From: Patescibacteria group bacterium
GTDB lineage: Bacteria > Patescibacteriota > Patescibacteriia > Magasanikbacterales > GWA2-37-8
Assembly: GCA_038056955.1 (NCBI GenBank)
Contig: JBBUEJ010000046.1
Span: forward strand, 1-34,396
DNA: 34,396 bases
Direction: 5' to 3'
Below are positions 3,541 to 34,065 of the stretch, one piece after another (the first letter of the stretch is position 1; the number at the start of each line of letters is the position of its first letter). The notes beneath the pieces are model-generated. The model made no database searches. It was not told the origin of the DNA and was given only the letters and a program-made list of their open reading frames with translations. The position numbers and the translations under genes are program-made.

Positions 3541-4617
3541 ATGAACAACAAATACAAAGAACTACAATCTAAATTTGCCAAACTGGAAGCCGATTTACAG
3601 AATCCGGCCTTGCTTGGCGGTTCCAAAAAAGTAAAAGAGGTTGCCCAAGAATATAATGAACTAAAACCGGCCATGGAAAAAATAAGAGAACTGACTGTAA
3701 TAGAAAATAGTATTGCGGAAACGGAACTGATTATAAAAGGCAATGATGAAGAAATGAAAGAAATGGCAAACACCGAAATTAATGATTTAGAAATTAAGAA
3801 ATTAAATTTGGAAAAAGAGCTGGACGAAATGACCCGCCCCCAAGACCCGTTTGATAAAAAAAATGTGATTGTGGAAATACGCGCCGGCGTGGGCGGAGAC
3901 GAATCCGCTCTTTTTGCCGCGGACTTGTACCGCATGTACAGCCGCTACGCCGAAAACAAAGGCTGGAAAGTAAACACGCTGGATGCAAACAAAATCGGCA
4001 TCGGCGGTTTTAAAGAAATTATATTCTCCATAAAAGGAAAAAATGTTTACAAAGATTTAAAATACGAAATGGGCGTGCACCGCGTGCAAAGAGTGCCAGA
4101 CACGGAAAAAGCCGGCCGCATTCATACTTCCACCGCCACTGTGGCCGTAATGCCGGAGATAGAAGAAACCGAATTTAAAATCGACCCGAAAGACTTGCGC
4201 ATAGACACCATGACAGCCGGCGGACACGGCGGACAAAGCGTGAACACCACCTACTCGGCGGTGCGCATTGTGTATCTTCCCACCGGCATGATTGTGCAAT
4301 GCCAGGACGAACGCTCCCAAACCGCCAACCGCGAAAAAGCGATGGCCGTCTTGCGCGCCCGTTTGTTTGCCATAGAACAAGAAAGAAAAATGAAAGAACT
4401 AACCGAAAAACGGCGCGCCCAAATTGGCAGCGGCGACCGCAGTGAAAAAATCCGCACCTATAATTTCCCCCAAGACCGCATTACCGATCACCGCATTCAC
4501 CAAAGCTGGAACAGTATTCCCCGGATTCTGGACGGCGAACTGGAGCCGATTATTTTGGCTGTGCGCGCGGCCGATTATGCCGGGCTGGATTATGTTGCCG
4601 ACGAAAGTGAAGAATAG
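3541..4617 (+). CDS. prfA: Peptide chain release factor 1
   Basis: GGQ motif ([12 protein letters not shown]). RF1-type PxT tripeptide in [17 protein letters not shown]. Followed by prmC, as in many bacteria. Confidence 0.93.
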
Positions 4618-4618
4618 T

Positions 4619-5413
4619 ATGCTGGATTTTGATTTACTAAAGGCGCGTGCTATAAAAAAGCCAAAAGAATTTTTATACTCTCATCCTGAATATCGTTTAT
4701 CAATTTGGCAACAACTTCGCTTAAAATATTTTGTCTTCCTGCGCAAAAAAGGCTACTCCGTCGCGGCTATTACCAAGCATAAAGAATTTTACGGCTTGGA
4801 TTTTTTTGTAAATAAAAATGTTTTAATCCCCCGCCCGGATACGGAATTGATGGTAACAAAAGCGATTGAGGAAATTAGGAAATTAGGAAATAAAGAAATT
4901 ATTCTAATTGATGTGGGTACAGGCAGTGGCTGTGTTCCTATTTCTGTTTTAAAAAATTTACCGACGCCAATGCCAACCTATGCTGTGGATATTTCCGACC
5001 AAGCTTTAAATGTAGCCAAGAATAATGCAAAAATACATGATGTAAAAATACAATTTTTTCATGGCAATTTACTTGAGCCAATCATCAAAAAAATCATAAA
5101 TCATAAATCTAAAATCATAATTACAGCGAACCTCCCCTACCTCACCGAAAAACAATTCCAATCCGAACCGTCAATTCAACGCGAACCCAAAACCGCGCTG
5201 GTGGCAGACAAAAACGGACTAGCTTTGTACGAAAAATTATTACAGCAAATTAAACTACTCCCTACTACTTACTCCCTACTCCTTCTACTGGAAATAGACC
5301 CATCCCAAACCGAAGAAATCTCAAAACTCATAAAACAATATCTGCCTCAATCAAAAATAGAAATAAAAAAAGACCTTGGCGGTCTTGATAGGTTAGTAAA
5401 AATAACAAGCTAA
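4619..5413 (+). CDS. prmC: Release-factor glutamine N5-methyltransferase (HemK/PrmC family)
   Basis: SAM motif I LIDVGTGSGCV. Motif IV reads ITANLPYL (NLPY instead of NPPY). Start taken at ATG 4619 (M66 of the listed 4424 ORF), 1 nt after the prfA stop. The upstream part of the listed ORF overlaps prfA out of frame. Confidence 0.85.
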   Translation: MLDFDLLKARAIKKPKEFLYSHPEYRLSIWQQLRLKYFVFLRKKGYSVAAITKHKEFYGLDFFVNKNVLIPRPDTELMVTKAIEEIRKLGNKEIILIDVGTGSGCVPISVLKNLPTPMPTYAVDISDQALNVAKNNAKIHDVKIQFFHGNLLEPIIKKIINHKSKIIITANLPYLTEKQFQSEPSIQREPKTALVADKNGLALYEKLLQQIKLLPTTYSLLLLLEIDPSQTEEISKLIKQYLPQSKIEIKKDLGGLDRLVKITS

Positions 5414-6462
5414 TTTGTCACCAAAATATTAGTTGTCTTTGGCACCATTTCTACCCAGGTATTGCCCGGCGCCAACAAAACTTCTTTTTTGTTTTTATCA
5501 TAAAATCGGGTACGGGCGGTAAGAGAAGTTTTTTTCCAGGTTCCGTAAATAACAGCGCCTTTTTTTAAAATTATAGCCTCGCCGCTTCCAATGGTGCTAA
5601 TTTCCACCCGCCCTTTTTCATCGCCATTTATTTCTTTTACGCCGGTAATTTGCACCAAAATATTTCGCGCCCGAACTTCGGAGCCGTCCTTGTCTTTTTC
5701 CGGCGCGCCATTTAATTTACGCGTATAATTCAAATTTTTGGCGTCGTATGTCCAAACGACTTTATAACTTTCACTAAAAGGAATGGTTAACACGCTTTTT
5801 TTGCCGATAGTTTGCCCAATCAATTTTGTATATTTCCAAGCTTTGTCCGCGGTAAATAGCGAACTGGTATTCCCATATCGGTCCACAATTTCTGCCCAAT
5901 TTTCACTGCCGGTATAAAGATTGTGCGGCGCTGACCGGTCTTGGCTTCTGTGGTAATACTGGCCCCAGAAAAATTCATTGGCGTCAAAAATGCGTCTGAC
6001 TTTAATTAAATTTAATGCTTCCGGTGAACCGCCCGAATGCATATATAATCCCCTGCCGTATTCTTGCAGCCAATCCAAAAAGTAGGCTCGGGCGCTACGC
6101 ACCGGACCAACTTCCGCCACCACTTGTTTGCTATCAAAAATAGCCAGATAACGGGTGAGGCCGCCTTCCACCGGCGCTTCATAAACAATTTTTGCCTTAG
6201 CCAGACCGGATACCGGACGCGCATCCGGATGATTGTCTACCATTACACCCACCACTTGCGAAACTGAGTCAGCTTTTTTATTTACCGCTTTCCCGTCTAG
6301 CGAATTTATATATTTAACCGCCGTAGTTAGAAAATCTTTATTGCTTGTGGCCTGTAATAGCTCTTTTGCAGGATAATAATAAAAAAATACGCAGCCAATC
6401 CCGACTATGGAAATTAGCGCCAAAAAAATGATGGGAGGAATTGGCCATGGTTTGCGCTTCAT
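5410..6462 (-). CDS. Membrane-anchored DUF3048-like (YerB-like) protein
   Basis: VGVMVDNHPDARPVSGLAKAKIVYEAPVEGGLTRYLAIF resembles the DUF3048 N-domain signature, and there is an N-terminal TM anchor. Start preferred at ATG 6462 (MKRKPWPIPPIIF...). The listed start at 6486 is a TTG that lies inside the predicted promoter. Confidence 0.7.
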   Translation of the reverse strand: MKRKPWPIPPIIFLALISIVGIGCVFFYYYPAKELLQATSNKDFLTTAVKYINSLDGKAVNKKADSVSQVVGVMVDNHPDARPVSGLAKAKIVYEAPVEGGLTRYLAIFDSKQVVAEVGPVRSARAYFLDWLQEYGRGLYMHSGGSPEALNLIKVRRIFDANEFFWGQYYHRSQDRSAPHNLYTGSENWAEIVDRYGNTSSLFTADKAWKYTKLIGQTIGKKSVLTIPFSESYKVVWTYDAKNLNYTRKLNGAPEKDKDGSEVRARNILVQITGVKEINGDEKGRVEISTIGSGEAIILKKGAVIYGTWKKTSLTARTRFYDKNKKEVLLAPGNTWVEMVPKTTNILVTN

Positions 6463-6490
6463 ATATGTATGTAGTATACCAAACAACTAA

Positions 6491-6516
6491 AAACACTCCA
6501 ATTTCTTGAAGTGTTT
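6491..6516 (-). terminator. Weak candidate terminator after rplY
   Basis: aaacact (6491-6497) pairs with agtgttt (6510-6516) around a 12-nt loop. The minus-strand tail is T-rich (tttttagttg). It overlaps the -35 region of the downstream gene's promoter (TTGGAG-17-TGgTATACT). Confidence 0.35.
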
Positions 6517-6528
6517 ATTTGATTGATT

Positions 6529-7248
6529 TTATTTCTTTTCTTCCTTCTTCTCTTCGGTCTTGGCGCCAGCTTCCGGCTTAACGGCTCCTTCAACAACAGC
6601 GCCCTCTGCGGCCTCTTCTTCTTTCTTCTTGCCGGCAGTTTCAATCTTGCTCAAATCAACCGGCGCGGCGGTTTGTTCCATAGCCTTAATTTCCTCTTCG
6701 GTTAAAGCGGCGGTGGCTTTGGCGATCAAATCTTCGGCATGAGGATTGGTAATAGTAATTCCGGCCGGAACGATTAAATCTTTAATTTTGATGACATCAT
6801 CAAAAGTTTTTAAAACAGTCAAATCCACATTAATATGAGAAACCAGATCTTTGGGCAAACATTTTACTTCCACGGCCATAATGTTGCGCATCAAAGTGCC
6901 GCCCTGTTCTTTAATTACTGGCGCTTCGCCCACAAAACGCAATTCAACGGTAGCGGTCATGGTTTTATTCATATCAATACGGCGCAAATCAACATGGACA
7001 ATGCGGTCGGAAACTGGATCGTACTGGATATCCTGAATCAAAACTTTGCCGTCGGCTTTATCTCCCAAAAGCAAATCAATCAAGCTGGCCTCGCCGGCTT
7101 CGTCGTATAGCTTGGCAAACTCATCGTAATTTAAAGATACTGAAGTAGCTGGCGCGCCCATACCATAAACTACACCCGGGATTAGAGTTTTGGTTCTCAT
7201 TTCGGCTCCTTTGGCGGTTCGTCCTCTGGCTGATAATTTGAATGGCAT
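6529..7248 (-). CDS. rplY: 50S ribosomal protein L25 / general stress protein Ctc, with an acidic/Lys-rich C-terminal tail
   Basis: N-terminus with LIPGVVYG and a two-domain length typical of the Ctc form. The C-terminal low-complexity tail reads KKKEEEAAEGA..EEKKEEKK. Confidence 0.88.
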   Translation of the reverse strand: MPFKLSARGRTAKGAEMRTKTLIPGVVYGMGAPATSVSLNYDEFAKLYDEAGEASLIDLLLGDKADGKVLIQDIQYDPVSDRIVHVDLRRIDMNKTMTATVELRFVGEAPVIKEQGGTLMRNIMAVEVKCLPKDLVSHINVDLTVLKTFDDVIKIKDLIVPAGITITNPHAEDLIAKATAALTEEEIKAMEQTAAPVDLSKIETAGKKKEEEAAEGAVVEGAVKPEAGAKTEEKKEEKK

Positions 7249-14973: not shown

Positions 14974-15789
14974 TTATTTAACTACACCTTTAACCATGTC
15001 GAAGACCTTGCTTAGGATATCGATTTCAATAGTTTCTTCTTTGTCCGGATGATTTGCAATACTTTCTCTAGGTGAAGTATAAATTTTGTTAATAACCCCA
15101 GTCATAAATTCAACTTTTTTAGTTTTATCCTCACTTTCATCAAATTCATCTGCTAATAACTGGCGGTAAGCCTCTAACGAGAGAGAAACGGCTGCTTTAA
15201 AGGCGTATTCCTCCAATAATTGTTTTTCTTTATTAAATTGACCGTGAAAGAAAAAAGCCGCATAAATAAAGGGGAAAGATAAAGTAAATTTTAAAAAGAA
15301 ATTTGGAGTAAGTGCTGGATTACTTTTTAATTCTAAAAAAACAAACAGGGCTACAAAAAACAGAATAATTATATCGGCAATTAACCACCTAAACAATTTT
15401 TTTATAGACCCTTCCAGTACCGATTTTCGGTCATTAAAAGTGTGCGAAAGAGAAGCGCCGGCGGCAATTCCTAATTGATTTTTTATTTCTTCCGCCAAAG
15501 CTTTATTTGTCTCTATTAATTTGTTAGTTGCTTCTTTTAAATCCTCGACCTCGCCTTTAATTTGCTGAACACTACTTTGGGTTTCATCAATATTCAAAAC
15601 AGTATTTTTTGCATGCTCTGCTTGGCTGGATACTTCAGCTAAATTTTTATTTACTTCGGCTATTGCAGAATTAATTTTACCTACCACTTGCTGTGACTCT
15701 GTAAAAAATTCATTCAGCTTAATCTTTTTTTGTTCTGCGTCTTTTATTATTTCAGTAATCTTCTTACCACCCCAAATTGCTTTAGACAT
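14974..15789 (-). CDS. Hypothetical protein: N-terminal coiled coil, two TM helices and a C-terminal helical region
   Basis: 271-aa ORF. Residues about 20-110 are heptad-like and Q/E/K/N-rich. TM helices: WLIADIIILFFVALFVFLEL and FFLKFTLSFPFIYAAFFFHG. Low-GC island gene. No family recognised with certainty. Confidence 0.7.
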   Translation of the reverse strand: MSKAIWGGKKITEIIKDAEQKKIKLNEFFTESQQVVGKINSAIAEVNKNLAEVSSQAEHAKNTVLNIDETQSSVQQIKGEVEDLKEATNKLIETNKALAEEIKNQLGIAAGASLSHTFNDRKSVLEGSIKKLFRWLIADIIILFFVALFVFLELKSNPALTPNFFLKFTLSFPFIYAAFFFHGQFNKEKQLLEEYAFKAAVSLSLEAYRQLLADEFDESEDKTKKVEFMTGVINKIYTSPRESIANHPDKEETIEIDILSKVFDMVKGVVK

Positions 15790-15847
15790 ATAAAAAATGA
15801 TAATTCCATATTAATTTTTTAAAAACTAGCGAGCAGGAACCTAATTA

Positions 15848-15961
15848 TTAGTTAGGTGTTGACTTGCGATGTTCTTTTACAAGAACACGCTTGCCACCGG
15901 GTAAAACACGAAAGTGTCGGCGAACCTCCACGATCTTTTTACCTTTTTTTGTTTTAACCAT
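15848..15961 (-). CDS. Possible 37-aa highly basic micro-protein (MVKTKKGKKIVEVRRHFRVLPGGKRVLVKEHRKSTPN)
   Basis: ATG 15961 to TAA 15848, below the ORF-track length cutoff. It lies in a GC-richer segment. There is no SD (as for most genes here), and it contains one copy of the ACACTTTCG motif. It could instead be part of a non-coding RNA. Confidence 0.25.
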   Translation of the reverse strand: MVKTKKGKKIVEVRRHFRVLPGGKRVLVKEHRKSTPN

Positions 15962-16114
15962 AGTACTTTGACTTAGCAGGTTAATAACCGGAGAGGCTTC
16001 GACTACATCCCCACCTCAACACAAATAAATATGCTGAGGAGGAGTGTCGAGCCCTGACTGATTAACCGCTGAGTCATGCCCCCGACTAAATCTGCTCGCT
16101 ATTTTTCAATAAAC

Positions 16115-16123
16115 TGTGGATAA
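16115..16123 (+). promoter_or_regulatory. TGTGGATAA 9-mer (DnaA-box consensus), 37 nt upstream of the M-gene -10
   Basis: Exact 9-mer within aaactgtggataact, which is shared with 1257-1271. Confidence 0.4.
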
Positions 16124-16133
16124 CTTATACTTT

Positions 16134-16155
16134 ACACTTTCGGGAAACTTTCGGG
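16134..16155 (+). promoter_or_regulatory. Operator-like tandem direct repeat acACTTTCGGG-aaACTTTCGGG over the -35/spacer of the M promoter
   Basis: ACTTTCGGG occurs at 16136-16144 and 16147-16155 (11-bp phasing). The first copy is part of ACACTTTCG, which recurs upstream of the endonuclease gene. Confidence 0.55.
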
Positions 16156-16157
16156 TA

Positions 16158-16166
16158 TGATATAAT
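16158..16166 (+). promoter_or_regulatory. Extended -10 promoter (TGaTATAAT) of the LexA-methyltransferase gene
   Basis: TG at 16158-16159 and TATAAT at 16161-16166. The -35 slot (16137-16143) is the non-canonical CTTTCG(G). Confidence 0.6.
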
Positions 16167-16192
16167 TGTACTACCATACAAAAATAAGTCAA
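16165..16192 (-). promoter_or_regulatory. Divergent minus-strand promoter (TTGACT-16-TACAAT) reading toward the GC-rich segment and micro-ORF
   Basis: Minus strand: TTGACT = 16192..16187 and TACAAT = 16170..16165. Its -10 overlaps the plus-strand -10 by 2 nt. Confidence 0.45.
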
Positions 16193-16209
16193 TATACATG
16201 ACTAATAAA

Positions 16210-16218
16210 TTATCCACA
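16210..16218 (+). promoter_or_regulatory. TTATCCACA 9-mer (DnaA-box consensus), inverted partner of 16115-16123
   Basis: Exact 9-mer ending 2 nt before the M-gene ATG. Read on the minus strand it is TGTGGATAA, 39 nt upstream of the minus-strand -10. Confidence 0.4.
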
Positions 16219-16220
16219 AT

Positions 16221-18887
16221 ATGGCTACCCTAACAAAAAAACAAAAAGACATTTTGGATTTTATTGCCACCTACACCGACAAACGTGGCGTATCCCCCAC
16301 TATCGAAGAAATTGGTCAACATTTTAAGCGCGCAATTGGAACCATACATGAACATATTGAAGAATTGATAAAAAAGGGGCTTGTCAAAAAAAATAATTAT
16401 ATACGCGGTATTGAAATAATTAAAAACAACGAAACAGTTTTAATACCCTTAAAGGGTTTTATTGCTGCCGGCGTGCCAATTGAAGTTATTGAAGAATACG
16501 AAACCATTACCGTACCAAAAAGCTTACTTGCCAAATCCGGCGATCATTTTGCCTTGCGGGTAAAAGGAAATAGCATGATTCAGGACGGTATTTTTGATGG
16601 CGATAATGTTGTTATTAGAAAACAAAATACAGCCGATAATGGCGAAACTATTGTTGCCCTAATAAATGGAAACGAAGCAACCTTGAAAAGAATTTATAAA
16701 GTATCGGGCGGATTCCGGCTTCAGCCTGCAAACCCGACCATCCCCGCTATTATTGTTAAACAAATAATCGTGCAAGGTAAGGTAATTTCTGTAATGCGAA
16801 ATTATGAAACGAGGCGCATTTTAAACGAACCATTAAATTTGCTCACTTTTAATGAAGAACTAAAACAGCTCATCATTAAAACACAGGGCGATATTAAAAA
16901 CAATTTTAAACCCAACAATGAATTTGAAATTTGGCAAAAAACAGAAGAAGGACCGGACCAAGATAAATTTTGCCTTGAAACTACTTATACTTTTCTAAAT
17001 GAACTACTTTTACTTTGGGTTTGTAAAGATAAACAATTAATGAATTTTGATGCAATAGAAAATAAGCAAAAATTAACTGCGCTTAAAAAAGATGCCCAAG
17101 AAATATATTCGCATATTTTTATAAATAATATTTTTGATTGGTATAGCCCTAGTAATATTCTACTGCTGGAAATTACCAATATTTTTAACAAATACGATTT
17201 CTCAAAAATTGACAGGGATGTGCTTGGAAAAATGTACGAACAATTCATCACAAAAGAAGAGAGAAAAAGACTGGGACAATTTTATACTCCAGAACCAATA
17301 ATTGATTACATCCTAGACCAGACGGGATATATAAACAATATTGAAGACAAAAAAATTATTGACATATCGTGCGGTTCCGGCGGTTTTACGACACGAGCGG
17401 CCAATCGCCTAATTAACAAACTAAAACAAGAAACAGACAAAGAAGCGGTAATAAACAAAGTAATCAACAACATCTACGGTTTAGACATCAATCCATTTGC
17501 TTGTTACTTGGCTGAAACCAATATTTTATTACAACTATTGGATATTATTATTGAAACCAAGCAAAATAATCCAAAATATAAAGTGCCAAAAATTAATATA
17601 TTTCAAACAAATACCATAGAAACACCCACGTTGTTAAGTGGCGATGAACAAAATATAAGAGAAATCAAAAATAAGGCCGGCAAATTTAGCAACGGGTTTG
17701 ATTTTGTAGTTGGTAACCCACCATATTTAGAAGCAAAAAAAATGGATAAAAAAACAAAAGGACTGTGCGCCGTCACTTGCCCCAATATAGCAAGTGGCGC
17801 TTTTGACCTCTTTGTTTGCTTTATTGACAAAGGTCTGCGTTTATTAAAAAATGGTGGAAAATTCGGATATATATTTCCAAACAAATTTTTGATAGCAAAC
17901 TACGCAAAAAAAATACGCGAGAAACTGCTAAATAACTACTCAATCAAAGAAATTATTGACGTGTCCGAATGTGAAGTGTTTGAAAACGTATCGGTATACC
18001 CTATAATTTTCATTGCCGAAAATAAAAAACCGCAAAATAACATAATTAAAACTGCGGAAAAAATAAATAATACGAACGAATTGAAAAACAAAAATTTTAT
18101 CACAAACGAAATTAAACAGGTTATATATAAAAGAGATGATTTTGTATTTTTTATTCTACCAAGCGATAAGGGACAAACCGCTCTACTCATGAAACTTCTT
18201 GGTGATAAATACAAAACTCTTGATAATTACCTTACTTTAAAATGGACAATATCTTTTCATGCTTCCGGTTTGAGAGAAAAATTTTTGTTCCCCGAAAAGC
18301 CACAGTCAGAATTTGCAAAAAAATTAATTGGCGGTAAATCATTTGCCGGTAATGATGATATAAACAGGTATAACTTAAAATGGGGTGGCTGGTGGATTGA
18401 TTATAATGAAGAATTAGCCCGCAAACATAAAAATCAACTCCCGCCAAAAAGTTTGTTTGAACAAGAAAAATTAATCATCTGCCAAAATGCATTACGCTTG
18501 CGCGCTACATATGATGATAAAGAATACTACTGCAAAGATACTTTTTTTGTTGCGCGCCTAAACGAAGATTTAAAAAAAGACTATAATATTAAATTTTTTC
18601 TTGCATTACTCAATTCGAAATTACTACATTACTATTATGGCAATATATATAAAGGAACCCATATTGCTGGCGGCTATCTTCATTATTTGATTGGCTATCT
18701 CTATAGCCTGCCAATTGCTGCGCCTACAAAAAAACAACAATCGGAAATTGTTGCTTTAGTAGAAAAAATACTTTCTACAAAAGAAGATAAAAAATATGTA
18801 TTGCTTGATGAAAAGATTGACGAAGCAATTTACAATCTTTACAATTTAGATGAGCGAGAAATTAAAATGGTTGAATCTTTTATTTAA
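16221..18887 (+). CDS. Fusion protein: full-length LexA-like repressor (wHTH + S24 autopeptidase) joined to an Eco57I/TaqI-like gamma-class N6-adenine DNA methyltransferase with a TaqI-like C-terminal target-recognition region
   Basis: Residues 1-195 align by eye to LexA almost position for position: LTKKQKDILDFI..RGVSPTIEEIG..GTIHEHIEELIKKGLV (wHTH), IAAG (Ala83-Gly84 scissile site), GNSM (Ser118), ATLKR (Lys156). Residues about 340-890 carry LGQFYTPEPII, motif I DISCGSGGF, motif IV VGNPPY (17715-17726), and a C-terminal region of TaqI-like MTase type. It is one uninterrupted 888-codon frame. Confidence 0.85.
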   Translation: MATLTKKQKDILDFIATYTDKRGVSPTIEEIGQHFKRAIGTIHEHIEELIKKGLVKKNNYIRGIEIIKNNETVLIPLKGFIAAGVPIEVIEEYETITVPKSLLAKSGDHFALRVKGNSMIQDGIFDGDNVVIRKQNTADNGETIVALINGNEATLKRIYKVSGGFRLQPANPTIPAIIVKQIIVQGKVISVMRNYETRRILNEPLNLLTFNEELKQLIIKTQGDIKNNFKPNNEFEIWQKTEEGPDQDKFCLETTYTFLNELLLLWVCKDKQLMNFDAIENKQKLTALKKDAQEIYSHIFINNIFDWYSPSNILLLEITNIFNKYDFSKIDRDVLGKMYEQFITKEERKRLGQFYTPEPIIDYILDQTGYINNIEDKKIIDISCGSGGFTTRAANRLINKLKQETDKEAVINKVINNIYGLDINPFACYLAETNILLQLLDIIIETKQNNPKYKVPKINIFQTNTIETPTLLSGDEQNIREIKNKAGKFSNGFDFVVGNPPYLEAKKMDKKTKGLCAVTCPNIASGAFDLFVCFIDKGLRLLKNGGKFGYIFPNKFLIANYAKKIREKLLNNYSIKEIIDVSECEVFENVSVYPIIFIAENKKPQNNIIKTAEKINNTNELKNKNFITNEIKQVIYKRDDFVFFILPSDKGQTALLMKLLGDKYKTLDNYLTLKWTISFHASGLREKFLFPEKPQSEFAKKLIGGKSFAGNDDINRYNLKWGGWWIDYNEELARKHKNQLPPKSLFEQEKLIICQNALRLRATYDDKEYYCKDTFFVARLNEDLKKDYNIKFFLALLNSKLLHYYYGNIYKGTHIAGGYLHYLIGYLYSLPIAAPTKKQQSEIVALVEKILSTKEDKKYVLLDEKIDEAIYNLYNLDEREIKMVESFI

Positions 18888-19587
18888 AACTTGTCAGAAA
18901 ATTTTGAACATACTCTTTAAAAGATATGATATTTGCCGCTACTGGCATATTCCCCTTATCCTTTCTCTTCCCATCTCTTATAACAAATATCGCATCTATT
19001 TTATGCTTTAAATCGGAATTGCCTAATAGTTGAGCCCATCCTTCGGTTAGTTCCAAAACCTCGGCAAAAACACAAAACTTAATACCGCCCAATAAATTAG
19101 TTGACTTTGTAATTTCGTCCTTAATAACGCGCGATTCTCCAATCAACTCTTTCATTCTGATCATATCGATATACTCTTTGCATTCAATTATCATCAGCGG
19201 CTTATCATCTGCTTTTCTAAAAATTACACAATCGCCGCCAATAGTTAAAACTTTGTCTTTGCCGTTTAATTTAATCATTTTTGCGGATAATCCACTTTTA
19301 TCATTTGCGGTAACTTTCTTACAATAAAACATGTCAATAAGCCCTGCCTCAGCAATAACTTGCTTAATCAAAATTTCAACAAAAAATTCATCCTTAAAAC
19401 CCACAAGAGCTGATACTTGTCTTTCTTTTAATTTGTATTTTTGGGCCCAATTGTAAAAATCGTTGAAATTTAAACTACAAAAAATTTCTATTGTTTCCTT
19501 GCTATTTTTACCAACTATCTTTTTTGCAACGTATTTATCAAAAATAGCTTTTGCGCTTACTTTTGTTTTTATTTTATCTTTGGGCAT
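18880..19587 (-). CDS. Putative type II restriction endonuclease (PD-(D/E)xK fold)
   Basis: 235-aa ORF convergent with the methyltransferase gene, overlapping it by 8 nt. Candidate catalytic motif GGD-x14-ECK (TIGGDCVIFRKADDKPLMIIECKEY). Low-GC island gene. The specific family was not recognised. Confidence 0.6.
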   Translation of the reverse strand: MPKDKIKTKVSAKAIFDKYVAKKIVGKNSKETIEIFCSLNFNDFYNWAQKYKLKERQVSALVGFKDEFFVEILIKQVIAEAGLIDMFYCKKVTANDKSGLSAKMIKLNGKDKVLTIGGDCVIFRKADDKPLMIIECKEYIDMIRMKELIGESRVIKDEITKSTNLLGGIKFCVFAEVLELTEGWAQLLGNSDLKHKIDAIFVIRDGKRKDKGNMPVAANIISFKEYVQNFLTSFK

Positions 19588-19616
19588 ATCATTTGATAAG
19601 GATAATGGACTTCCTA

Positions 19617-19648
19617 ATTATAAGAGTAACATAGACGTACGAAAGTGT
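19617..19648 (-). promoter_or_regulatory. Promoter of the endonuclease gene, with ACACTTTCG occupying the -35 slot (CTTTCG-17-TATAAT)
   Basis: Minus strand: GACACTTTCGT = 19650..19640 and TATAAT = 19622..19617, with a 17-nt spacer. This is the same 9-mer and the same spacing as in the M promoter. Confidence 0.55.
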
Positions 19649-33764: not shown

Positions 33765-34065
33765 TTATTTCTTTACACTTTCGACAAACTCTTTTCTTGT
33801 CTTTACCATCTATTTTATAACCAACTCTGGTCTCCAGGCTGCATTTAGGACAAACAAGAGCTACTTTGCTGATGTGTAAAGGACCGGCTAGTTCTATTAC
33901 TTGACCCTTCTCGCCTTGCTTTTTGGACTTCAAGCTTTTCTTCATAATATTGACGCCTTCCACTACTACTTTTTCTTCTTTTGGAAAAGCCTGAATAACC
34001 TTGCCGGTTTTGCCGGAGTCTTTGCCGCTCATTACTTTTACTTTGTCGTTAATCTTGATTTTCAT
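33757..34065 (-). CDS. rplX: 50S ribosomal protein L24 (with a CxxC...CxxC C-terminal element)
   Basis: KIKINDKVKVMSGKDSGKTGKVI (KOW motif). The C-terminus carries CPKC..CRKC. Confidence 0.93.
   Translation of the reverse strand: MKIKINDKVKVMSGKDSGKTGKVIQAFPKEEKVVVEGVNIMKKSLKSKKQGEKGQVIELAGPLHISKVALVCPKCSLETRVGYKIDGKDKKRVCRKCKEIIE

Follow-up and report, generated by a model that had tools for sequence, protein, structure and literature searches.

We analyzed a stretch of 34,396 nucleotides (hereafter, the window) corresponding to contig JBBUEJ010000046.1 of the Patescibacteria group bacterium assembly GCA_038056955.1, focusing on two convergent genes that encode, respectively, a LexA repressor fused to a DNA methyltransferase (M) and a predicted restriction endonuclease (R). 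The fusion open reading frame (ORF) spans positions 16221..18887 of the forward strand and encodes 888 amino acids (aa) without interruption, and the second ORF (18880..19587, reverse strand; 235 aa) overlaps its end by 8 nt. G+C content is ~31-36% across 14.5-19.5 kb, as opposed to 40-48% in the surrounding sequence, and this low-G+C island adjoins three tRNA genes and lies between gyrA and the relA/spoT, parB and parA genes.

A complete LexA module is fused to a complete methyltransferase

The first 195 residues of the 888-aa protein (16221..16805, + strand) make up a LexA module, supported by Pfam searches, equivalog scoring, structure alignment and invariant residues, which is here part of a larger polypeptide and not a stand-alone protein of ~200 aa. 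Pfam identifies the LexA_DNA_bind winged helix-turn-helix (HTH) at residues 1-58 (E 5e-11, 42.7 bits versus a cutoff of 23.7) and Peptidase_S24 at residues 78-189 (E 1.2e-28), with Ser118 and Lys156 inside the latter. The NCBIfam lexA equivalog TIGR00498 matches residues 1-195 at model positions 1-202/203, with a score of 161.9 bits versus a cutoff of 110.95. The N-terminal part aligns over its full length with the solved structures of Thermotoga maritima (3k2z, E 4e-29) and Escherichia coli (1jhh) LexA. These alignments pair the fusion segments IAAG, GNSM and TLKR with VAAG, SGMSM and TVKR, respectively, and place the scissile bond at Ala83-Gly84 (16467-16472, + strand). A83, G84, S118 and K156 are invariant in 91/91 full-length members of the family, with identity in the LexA part going down to ~45%. 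In an AlphaFold2 (AF2) model of the whole fusion (mean predicted local distance difference test score, pLDDT, of 84.4), residues 86-92, just past the scissile bond, are loop-like and of low confidence, and therefore fit the expected mobile cleavage loop.

The remainder of the fusion (16806..18887, + strand) is a type II gamma-class N6-adenine DNA methyltransferase, as indicated by Pfam, PADLOC, Foldseek and invariant columns. A helical N-terminal region (residues ~196-330) precedes the catalytic domain (residues 331-635; Pfam Eco57I and N6_Mtase, E 3.8e-34 and 6.7e-26), in which motif I (CGSGGF, 384-389) and the NPPY motif (499-502) are invariant among the 91 full-length members, and a TaqI_C target-recognition domain (TRD) follows at residues 709-832 (E 2.5e-18). 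The PADLOC MTase_II model PDLC03235 is matched nearly end to end by residues 281-888 (E 2e-111). The nearest solved structure in Foldseek is CamA (E 1e-29; template modelling, TM, score of 0.67-0.70 on the target), with M.BseCI, BrxX/PglX, MmeI and M.TaqI as further neighbours. Because LexA-less methyltransferase relatives of ~700 aa cover fusion residues ~200-888, the junction can be read as joining a complete LexA to a complete methyltransferase.

The convergent gene (18880..19587, - strand) is assigned to a restriction endonuclease on the basis of fold, invariant residues and co-occurrence. Its 235-aa product yields no match in Pfam, NCBIfam, PADLOC or PDB sequences, and of the searches made only the fold search recognized it. 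The AF2 model (pLDDT 90.4, predicted TM score, pTM, 0.86) has BbvCI as its nearest fold (E 5.8e-7, query TM score, TMq, 0.58), followed by NucC, PfoI and Bse634I. The putative PD-(D/E)xK site comprises D119, E135 and K137, and the G117-G118-D119 and E135-C-K137 segments that contain it are invariant across 35 R relatives. The protein also shows weak similarity (25% identity, E 1e-9) to an ORF beside a methyltransferase-only relative, which in turn has a weak RE_Bpu10I match. The invariant GGD/ECK residues, the BbvCI-like modelled fold and the similarity to this Bpu10I-like neighbour ORF together identify the 235-aa protein as a predicted restriction endonuclease, and the pair as a type II restriction-modification (R-M) system; by family and fold, both components are bona fide type II enzymes.

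These results bear out most of what a first-pass annotation of the window had read from the letters alone: an uninterrupted 888-codon frame whose first ~195 residues match LexA, followed by a gamma-class N6-adenine methyltransferase with a TaqI-like C-terminus, and a convergent 235-aa ORF with a GGD..ECK motif and an 8-nt overlap. Its numbering of A83, G84, S118 and K156 agrees with the LexA structure alignments, profile searches recovered Eco57I/N6_Mtase and TaqI_C, and the nuclease fold that it had postulated was found in the AF2 model.

The fusion is widely conserved and forms part of a mobile module

Full-length relatives of the fusion, 60-100% identical to it, form ~100 clusters at 90% identity in NCBI, JGI, ENA and Logan assemblies. 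They share the same six Pfam domains, and public records name them 'transcriptional repressor LexA'. The survey that had been proposed for the same fusion and an accompanying nuclease thus returned both, with R relatives located on the same contigs as the fusion and constituting a family of comparable size and divergence. An assembly or frameshift artefact joining a lexA gene to a methyltransferase gene could be invoked given that the window is of metagenome type and that a free-standing LexA followed by a methyltransferase does exist (locus L050), but the 91 full-length fusions from the four sources are all joined at one and the same place, through a helical linker that is conserved among them, and 42 further fusion clusters, described below, add to them. 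Since many independent assemblies show the same full-length architecture, a chimeric join is excluded, and we regard the probability of an artefact of either kind as negligible.

Four loci (L018, L041-43) that had been considered as a second kind of LexA fusion were rejected as such, being decayed modules truncated at residue ~355 that contain an inserted Mrr-like gene and a remnant of R. In L018, M and R have been lost together. In this locus (4007-6672) and in L047 (1521-3615), a truncated LexA-methyltransferase is accompanied by an Mrr/SRA-type restriction gene in place of the lost part, an arrangement consistent with antagonism between type IV enzymes and the methyltransferase. Separately, the protein P0117 was observed to combine LexA with a KaiC-like match.

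The convergent M-R pair is found in ~20 loci with unrelated flanking genes, and the overlap at the M and R stop codons varies between 4 and 29 nt across loci, being 8 nt in most. Nucleotide similarity between the window and related loci runs from ~16113/16129 to ~19599, and its extent defines a portable unit of ~3.5 kb (~16113-19599) whose left end is the M promoter region and whose right end falls ~12 nt 5' of the R start codon. In at least six loci (L009, L016, L031, L004, L023 and L029), the gene directly 5' of R, on the same strand, is a tRNA gene, which is tRNA-Trp-like in three of them. This suggests that the module inserts next to tRNA genes, with expression of R by read-through being possible. 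We conclude that ~16113-19599 is a mobile type II R-M module of Patescibacteria; no relative was detected on viral contigs in a search of IMG/VR.

Several features lie immediately to the left of the module. The 15811-16113 segment is common only to L023 and L024 and is bordered by inverted 8-mers (gcgagcag / ctgctcgc). It contains a 37-aa basic ORF (~15950 to 15840, - strand) and a long hairpin of ~105 nt (15969-16076; z of -4.7 on the + strand and -3.4 on the - strand) with no Rfam match, and Rfam returned nothing credible for the region upstream of the module. Between the tRNA cluster and the module, within the same low-G+C island, a 271-aa coiled-coil protein with predicted membrane segments is encoded at 14974-15789 (- strand), for which only weak, non-specific family matches were obtained.

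The M promoter contains a predicted LexA operator

Right-aligned upstream regions of M from ~25 non-redundant loci revealed a conserved order of elements: TGTGGATAA(C), a spacer of 0-19 nt, a direct repeat with a period of 11, an extended -10 element (TGnTATAAT) and a GTCAA element, with ~9 loci also harboring an inverted TTATCCACA at -11/-10 from the ATG. In the window, the direct repeat consists of tandem ACTTTCGGG (16136-16144 and 16147-16155, + strand), in a position conserved in all relatives, and ends 2 nt before the TG of the putative M promoter, P_M (extended -10 TGaTATAAT, 16158..16166, + strand). The TGnTAnnnT pattern occurs at this place in 18/32 loci with the LexA cassette, and TATAAT-like hexamers occupy it in those that do not present the pattern.

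The same type of box is found at free-standing lexA genes of Patescibacteria, where the repeat is located between the -35 and -10 elements (TTGACT-tGTTCGGgtaatGTTTGGtaatct in WWE3 and TTGACA-aTTCGGtttttGTTCGGttatgct in Saccharimonadia). Furthermore, the half-site varies with the recognition helix of the LexA part. Helices of the ..GT(I/V)HEH.. type pair with (C/T)TTTCGG half-sites, ..SGVQEH.. with CTACGG / GTACGG, and ..STVHEH.. (L038) with CTTCGG / GTTCGG; ..S(G/T)(V/I)HQH.. helices and the ..ATVHEH.. helix of L033 pair with TT(T)CGGT, and ..ST(A/V/S)H(Y/F/H)(Y/H).. and ..STVNHY.. with TTCTAT. This pairing is unaffected by what the LexA is attached to. The occurrence of the same box at free-standing lexA genes and its covariation with the recognition helix lead us to identify the repeat as a putative LexA operator, and the M promoter, with this predicted operator, is very likely the site at which the LexA part acts. 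Direct-repeat LexA boxes have precedents in the GTTC-N7-GTTC motif of the Alphaproteobacteria (PMC8565304), and PMC7739468 counts a study of the Patescibacteria SOS response among the direct-repeat cases.

Two further elements are conserved in this control region. The left-most conserved element of the module, TGTGGATAA (16115..16123, + strand), equals the reverse-complemented DnaA-box consensus TTATCCACA. With one mismatch allowed, 30/31 intact cassette loci carry it 5' of the operator, L015 being the exception, against a background of 0.017 exact matches per 160 nt. The decayed L018 lacks it, as do the lexA promoters of WWE3 and Saccharimonadia (L019, L020), and in L013 and L048 it is inverted jointly with the operator. 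An inverted copy, TTATCCACA, lies 2 nt before the ATG (16210..16218, + strand), at the -11/-10 position seen in ~9 loci. The second element is a reverse promoter-like sequence, TTGACT-16-TACAAT (16165..16192, - strand), the -10 of which overlaps that of P_M. Its general form, TTGAC[AT]-N16-18-TAnnnT on the minus strand, appears in 17/32 cassette loci versus 0.22 expected from shuffles.

Some additional observations concern these elements within the window. Exact TTATCCACA/TGTGGATAA sequences occur three times, each in a promoter-like context: two lie on either side of P_M, inverted relative to each other, and the third (1261-1269, - strand) follows the tsf terminator, 33 nt 5' of the extended -10 of a 251-aa ORF. 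The reverse promoter, which is close to consensus, points out of the module, and would read into R were the module circular. The 13-mer CTTTACACTTTCG followed by AAACT, as in the operator region (16130-16149), recurs at 33770-33795 inside the 3' end of a coding sequence for an L24-like ribosomal protein, a match that is probably due to chance, though improbable in a 34-kb window.

The LexA cassette is associated with diverse restriction-modification systems

An exhaustive HMMER search of 1.84 billion representative sequences with the LexA module as query yielded, among its best ~130 hits, 42 proteins with an N-terminal LexA (clusters at 50% identity; 393-890 aa). All 42 present LexA_DNA_bind, Peptidase_S24 and a DNA methyltransferase domain, with matches to N6_N4_Mtase (30 representatives), Eco57I (7), MethyltransfD12 (5) and C5 DNA_methylase (2), and an alignment shows that the Ala-Gly, Ser and Lys residues are invariant in 42/42. 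Named members belong to the Patescibacteria (Nealsonbacteria and others), with one metagenome-assembled genome from the Omnitrophota, and are labelled only as 'LexA repressor' or 'hypothetical'. The N6_N4 and C5 fusions at the three loci inspected individually were interrupted, by truncation in L047 and by an in-frame TAA in L048 and L049, whereas this search provided full-length ones with complete domain matches. In L048 (635-2506) and L049 (2259-3234), each LexA-N6_N4 gene is interrupted by its own TAA with the frame unchanged thereafter, and these may be either pseudogenes or sequencing errors.

Individual loci illustrate the variety of partners. L005 encodes an 827-aa fusion with a LexA part 60-86% identical and a methyltransferase 18-48% identical to those of the window; its promoter and operator are identical, and its partner is an unrelated convergent ORF with a weak PADLOC match to type II restriction endonucleases (E 8e-5). 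In L010, L025 and L026, an 888-aa fusion 84% identical to that of the window is paired with a different, REase_II-type partner, and the TRD of the L010-type fusion resembles that of the window no less than the TRDs of other family members do, which suggests that the endonuclease gene has been replaced within an otherwise conserved module. This partner (6660-7349 in L010) encodes 229 aa with an E-x-K motif and a PADLOC REase_II match (5.6e-11). A LexA-N6_N4 methyltransferase faces a convergent MvaI/BcnI-family endonuclease in L048, and in L055 a LexA-N6A methyltransferase is followed by a C5 methyltransferase and a convergent RE_Alw26IDE enzyme (E 3.5e-122), in the gene order known from Alw26I/Eco31I/Esp3I. 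L053 harbors a 615-aa fusion with a convergent 302-aa ORF in a defence island, and L047 a LexA-C5 methyltransferase fragment upstream of a type IV-like SRA/Mrr gene. Among the nearest free-standing LexA proteins, three (56-58% identical) also have the cassette promoter, and two of these head type II R-M operons: LexA, a small ORF, a methyltransferase and a Tsp45I-family endonuclease in L050, and LexA, an endonuclease and an N6_N4 methyltransferase in L051. Together, these sequence comparisons indicate that LexA fusions involve at least four methyltransferase classes and that the fusion in the window belongs to a large class and is not a single oddity.

The conservation of the cleavage residues bears on whether the LexA part functions as a cleavable repressor at all. 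The fusion could be a constitutive autorepressor, standing in for a C protein or an SsoII-type HTH, in which the S24 domain is retained for dimerization, never cleaves and has no link to DNA damage. What the sequence data directly reveal is an operator and a repressor, and the C-terminal domain of LexA is indeed its dimerization domain. LexA-like proteins that do not cleave themselves, for example the one in Synechocystis, have however lost the Ala-Gly, Ser and Lys residues, which are invariant in the 91 family members and in the 42 other fusion clusters, and the loop-like residues 86-92 of the AF2 model also speak against a site that is never cut. We consequently regard a constitutive autorepressor as unlikely.

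The spread of the cassette likewise bears on a second alternative, in which the fusion is the organism's SOS master regulator, carrying an orphan epigenetic methyltransferase next to an incidental nuclease. The score above the NCBIfam equivalog cutoff, the naming of database records and the lack of a further lexA within the 34-kb window would agree with such a role. The window, however, contains a single perfect repeat pair, located at the fusion's own promoter, with no other convincing SOS box in its 34 kb. Moreover, the M-R pair moves between unrelated sites and resides here in a low-G+C island, R co-occurs with the fusion and is conserved, and the same LexA cassette is found on many different R-M systems, so that this alternative appears quite improbable.

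The upstream region of R differs between loci

The upstream regions of R have nothing in common between loci beyond ~20 nt before the ATG, and because of this dissimilarity the module contains no conserved R operator or promoter. In the window, the 9-mer ACACTTTCG, corresponding to the first half of the operator, occurs in four exact copies versus 0.17 expected. One of these is a single half-site-like sequence 53 nt 5' of the R start (19640..19648, - strand), which lacks the following GG and has no counterpart in other loci; it is a feature of this window only, and its function is doubtful. The first-pass annotation had proposed a promoter motif shared by M and R. The over-representation of ACACTTTCG is real in this window, but the R-side copy is not conserved elsewhere, and the shared motif was therefore rejected as a feature of the module.

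The layout of R also bears on the proposal that DNA damage or phage replication triggers cleavage of LexA and thereby switches restriction on, with both genes derepressed or R favoured. The endonuclease genes within the LexA-controlled operons of L050 (LexA-M-R) and L051 (LexA-R-M) are compatible with it, as is the ACACTTTCG half-site upstream of R in this window. In the module, nonetheless, R is convergent and without a conserved operator or promoter, the unit ends ~12 nt before its ATG, the lone half-site is absent from all other loci, derepressed P_M would drive transcription head-on into R, and extra methyltransferase during infection would protect phage DNA as well. SOS-activated restriction thus strikes us as a doubtful account of this locus, even more so than constitutive autorepression.

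A model for LexA control of the module

On balance, we lean toward a reading of the sequence evidence in which the LexA part would be a self-repressing, RecA-cleavable controller of the methyltransferase in a mobile R-M module. A dimer of the fusion would bind the direct repeat and repress P_M, so that the level of methyltransferase would be self-limited through negative autoregulation, much as with SsoII-type HTH-methyltransferases and C proteins. Upon DNA damage, RecA-ssDNA (single-stranded DNA) filaments would trigger self-cleavage at Ala83-Gly84, which is to be expected from the invariance of the Ala-Gly, Ser and Lys residues in every relative; cleavage would then free residues 1-83 from an intact S24-methyltransferase body and P_M would be derepressed. 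More speculatively, high P_M activity may oppose transcription of R, since M and R converge, their ends overlapping by 8 nt without an intervening terminator, and R lacks a conserved operator or promoter. In a naive cell, M might accordingly be made first and R later, and the SOS response could tip the balance back toward methylation at the expense of restriction, which would amount to restriction alleviation in a type II system. In the convergent layout, derepression should hence favour modification over restriction.

Compared with the mechanism sketched in the first-pass annotation, this model dispenses with tethering of LexA at the promoter, which is unnecessary because closely related LexA proteins act free-standing at the head of R-M operons. 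A shift in the balance between M and R remains plausible, but the joint derepression of both genes is unlikely, given that the upstream region of R is not conserved and that the module ends ~12 nt before its start. The suggested coupling of restriction to the SOS signal is likewise replaced by its opposite, extra methylation and less restriction being judged likelier than SOS-activated restriction.

Several considerations weigh against this model. Every regulatory step in it is inferred from sequence, and this genome was viewed through 34 kb only, in which a recO-like gene is the sole classic SOS gene, with RecA and any second host lexA lying outside that view. Shared ancestry is a partial confounder of the covariation between recognition helix and operator, but in three cases a swap of partner uncouples it from the methyltransferase. 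The model does not account for the conserved TGTGGATAA element and reverse promoter in the control region. In L050 and L051, R lies within the LexA operon and derepression would raise its expression along with that of M; since these free-standing versions carry R in that position, a decrease in restriction during SOS would be specific to the convergent layout. Finally, full-text literature searches found no published account of a LexA/S24 domain fused to a methyltransferase or controlling an R-M system, in line with the earlier claim that the architecture is undescribed, but they did not cover Sanchez-Osuna et al. 2017 on the Patescibacteria SOS response.

As far as can be read from these loci, what the members of the class have in common is that a LexA-type repressor gates R-M expression, with no single fixed outcome. 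We propose, more tentatively and with somewhat less than even confidence, that LexA/S24 may constitute a general, portable class of DNA-damage-responsive controllers for type II R-M systems of the Patescibacteria, a functional counterpart of C proteins. Such controllers would be either fused (to gamma-N6A, beta-N4/N6, Dam-like or C5 methyltransferases) or free-standing, their direct-repeat operators would co-evolve with them, and RecA-triggered cleavage would re-set the balance of methylation and restriction, with the DnaA-box-like element possibly adding a replication input.

If correct, a cleavable LexA within a methyltransferase would connect RecA/SOS signalling directly with a type II R-M system, providing type II systems with SOS-linked restriction alleviation and a built-in establishment timer, and offering a testable answer to how R-M systems spare their host under DNA repair. 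It would also affect annotation: a large share of the proteins labelled LexA in the Patescibacteria, which are genome-reduced, uncultured bacteria, would be R-M controllers and not SOS master regulators, and this mislabelling matters for the reconstruction of their regulons. The helix and operator variants additionally provide a natural series for studying the evolution of LexA specificity.

Comparison with known regulatory systems

The LexA part shares with the LexA of the SOS response (1jhh, 3k2z) the winged HTH, the S24 autopeptidase, the Ala-Gly site, the Ser/Lys dyad and an operator on its own promoter, and its period-11 direct repeat resembles the GTTC-N7-GTTC box of the Alphaproteobacteria as well as those at free-standing Patescibacteria lexA genes. 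It differs from SOS LexA in being the N-terminus of an 888-aa methyltransferase on a mobile R-M module, where we find no evidence for the control of repair genes.

Among R-M systems, one close parallel in organization is that of the SsoII-type methyltransferases (M.SsoII, M.Ecl18kI, M.EcoRII, M.ScrFIA), in which an N-terminal HTH autoregulates the R-M system (PMC3874152). Judged by its sequence, the fusion resembles them in carrying a DNA-binding domain on the N-terminus of the methyltransferase and a predicted operator in its own promoter, such that the level of the enzyme would set transcription. SsoII-type enzymes, however, belong to the C5 methyltransferases, their HTH extension is short and protease-free, and they activate a divergent R through binding of M, whereas the fusion combines an N6A methyltransferase, a 195-aa LexA with a protease domain and a convergent R.

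C proteins offer a different parallel, that of a portable regulator-plus-operator cassette swapped among unrelated R-M systems, and the free-standing LexA of L050 and L051 likewise occupies the head of the operon. C proteins are nevertheless small Xre-type HTH activator/repressors that recognize palindromic C-boxes and have no signal-sensing protease domain. No Xre-type controller was found among the ORFs of the module, and its predicted operator is a direct repeat and not a C-box. A 93-aa ORF preceding the methyltransferase-only relative (L007) had been considered as a separate C protein, but was rejected as a fragment of a restriction endonuclease lacking an HTH. For the enzymatic parts, the closest known systems are M.CamA, M.BseCI, M.TaqI and BbvCI/Bpu10I, none of which carries a LexA module; BbvCI, in addition, is a heterodimer of two subunits, in contrast to the single R gene of the module.

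A review of R-M regulation (PMC3874152) covers C proteins, HTH-bearing methyltransferases and antisense RNAs with reverse promoters as control strategies, and mentions LexA solely in relation to the SymE toxin. The outcome predicted for the module, less restriction relative to modification on a damaged chromosome, is the same as that of type I restriction alleviation. After DNA damage, type I alleviation proceeds through degradation of HsdR by ClpXP; by analogy, alleviation in the module would be transcriptional instead of relying on proteolysis of a restriction subunit, and would operate through LexA self-cleavage in a type II system. Promoter methylation is a further strategy of R-M control, and to our knowledge none of the known strategies involves a signal-sensing protease domain. 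What is apparently new in the module is thus a regulator-bearing methyltransferase whose regulator is a complete, apparently cleavable LexA.

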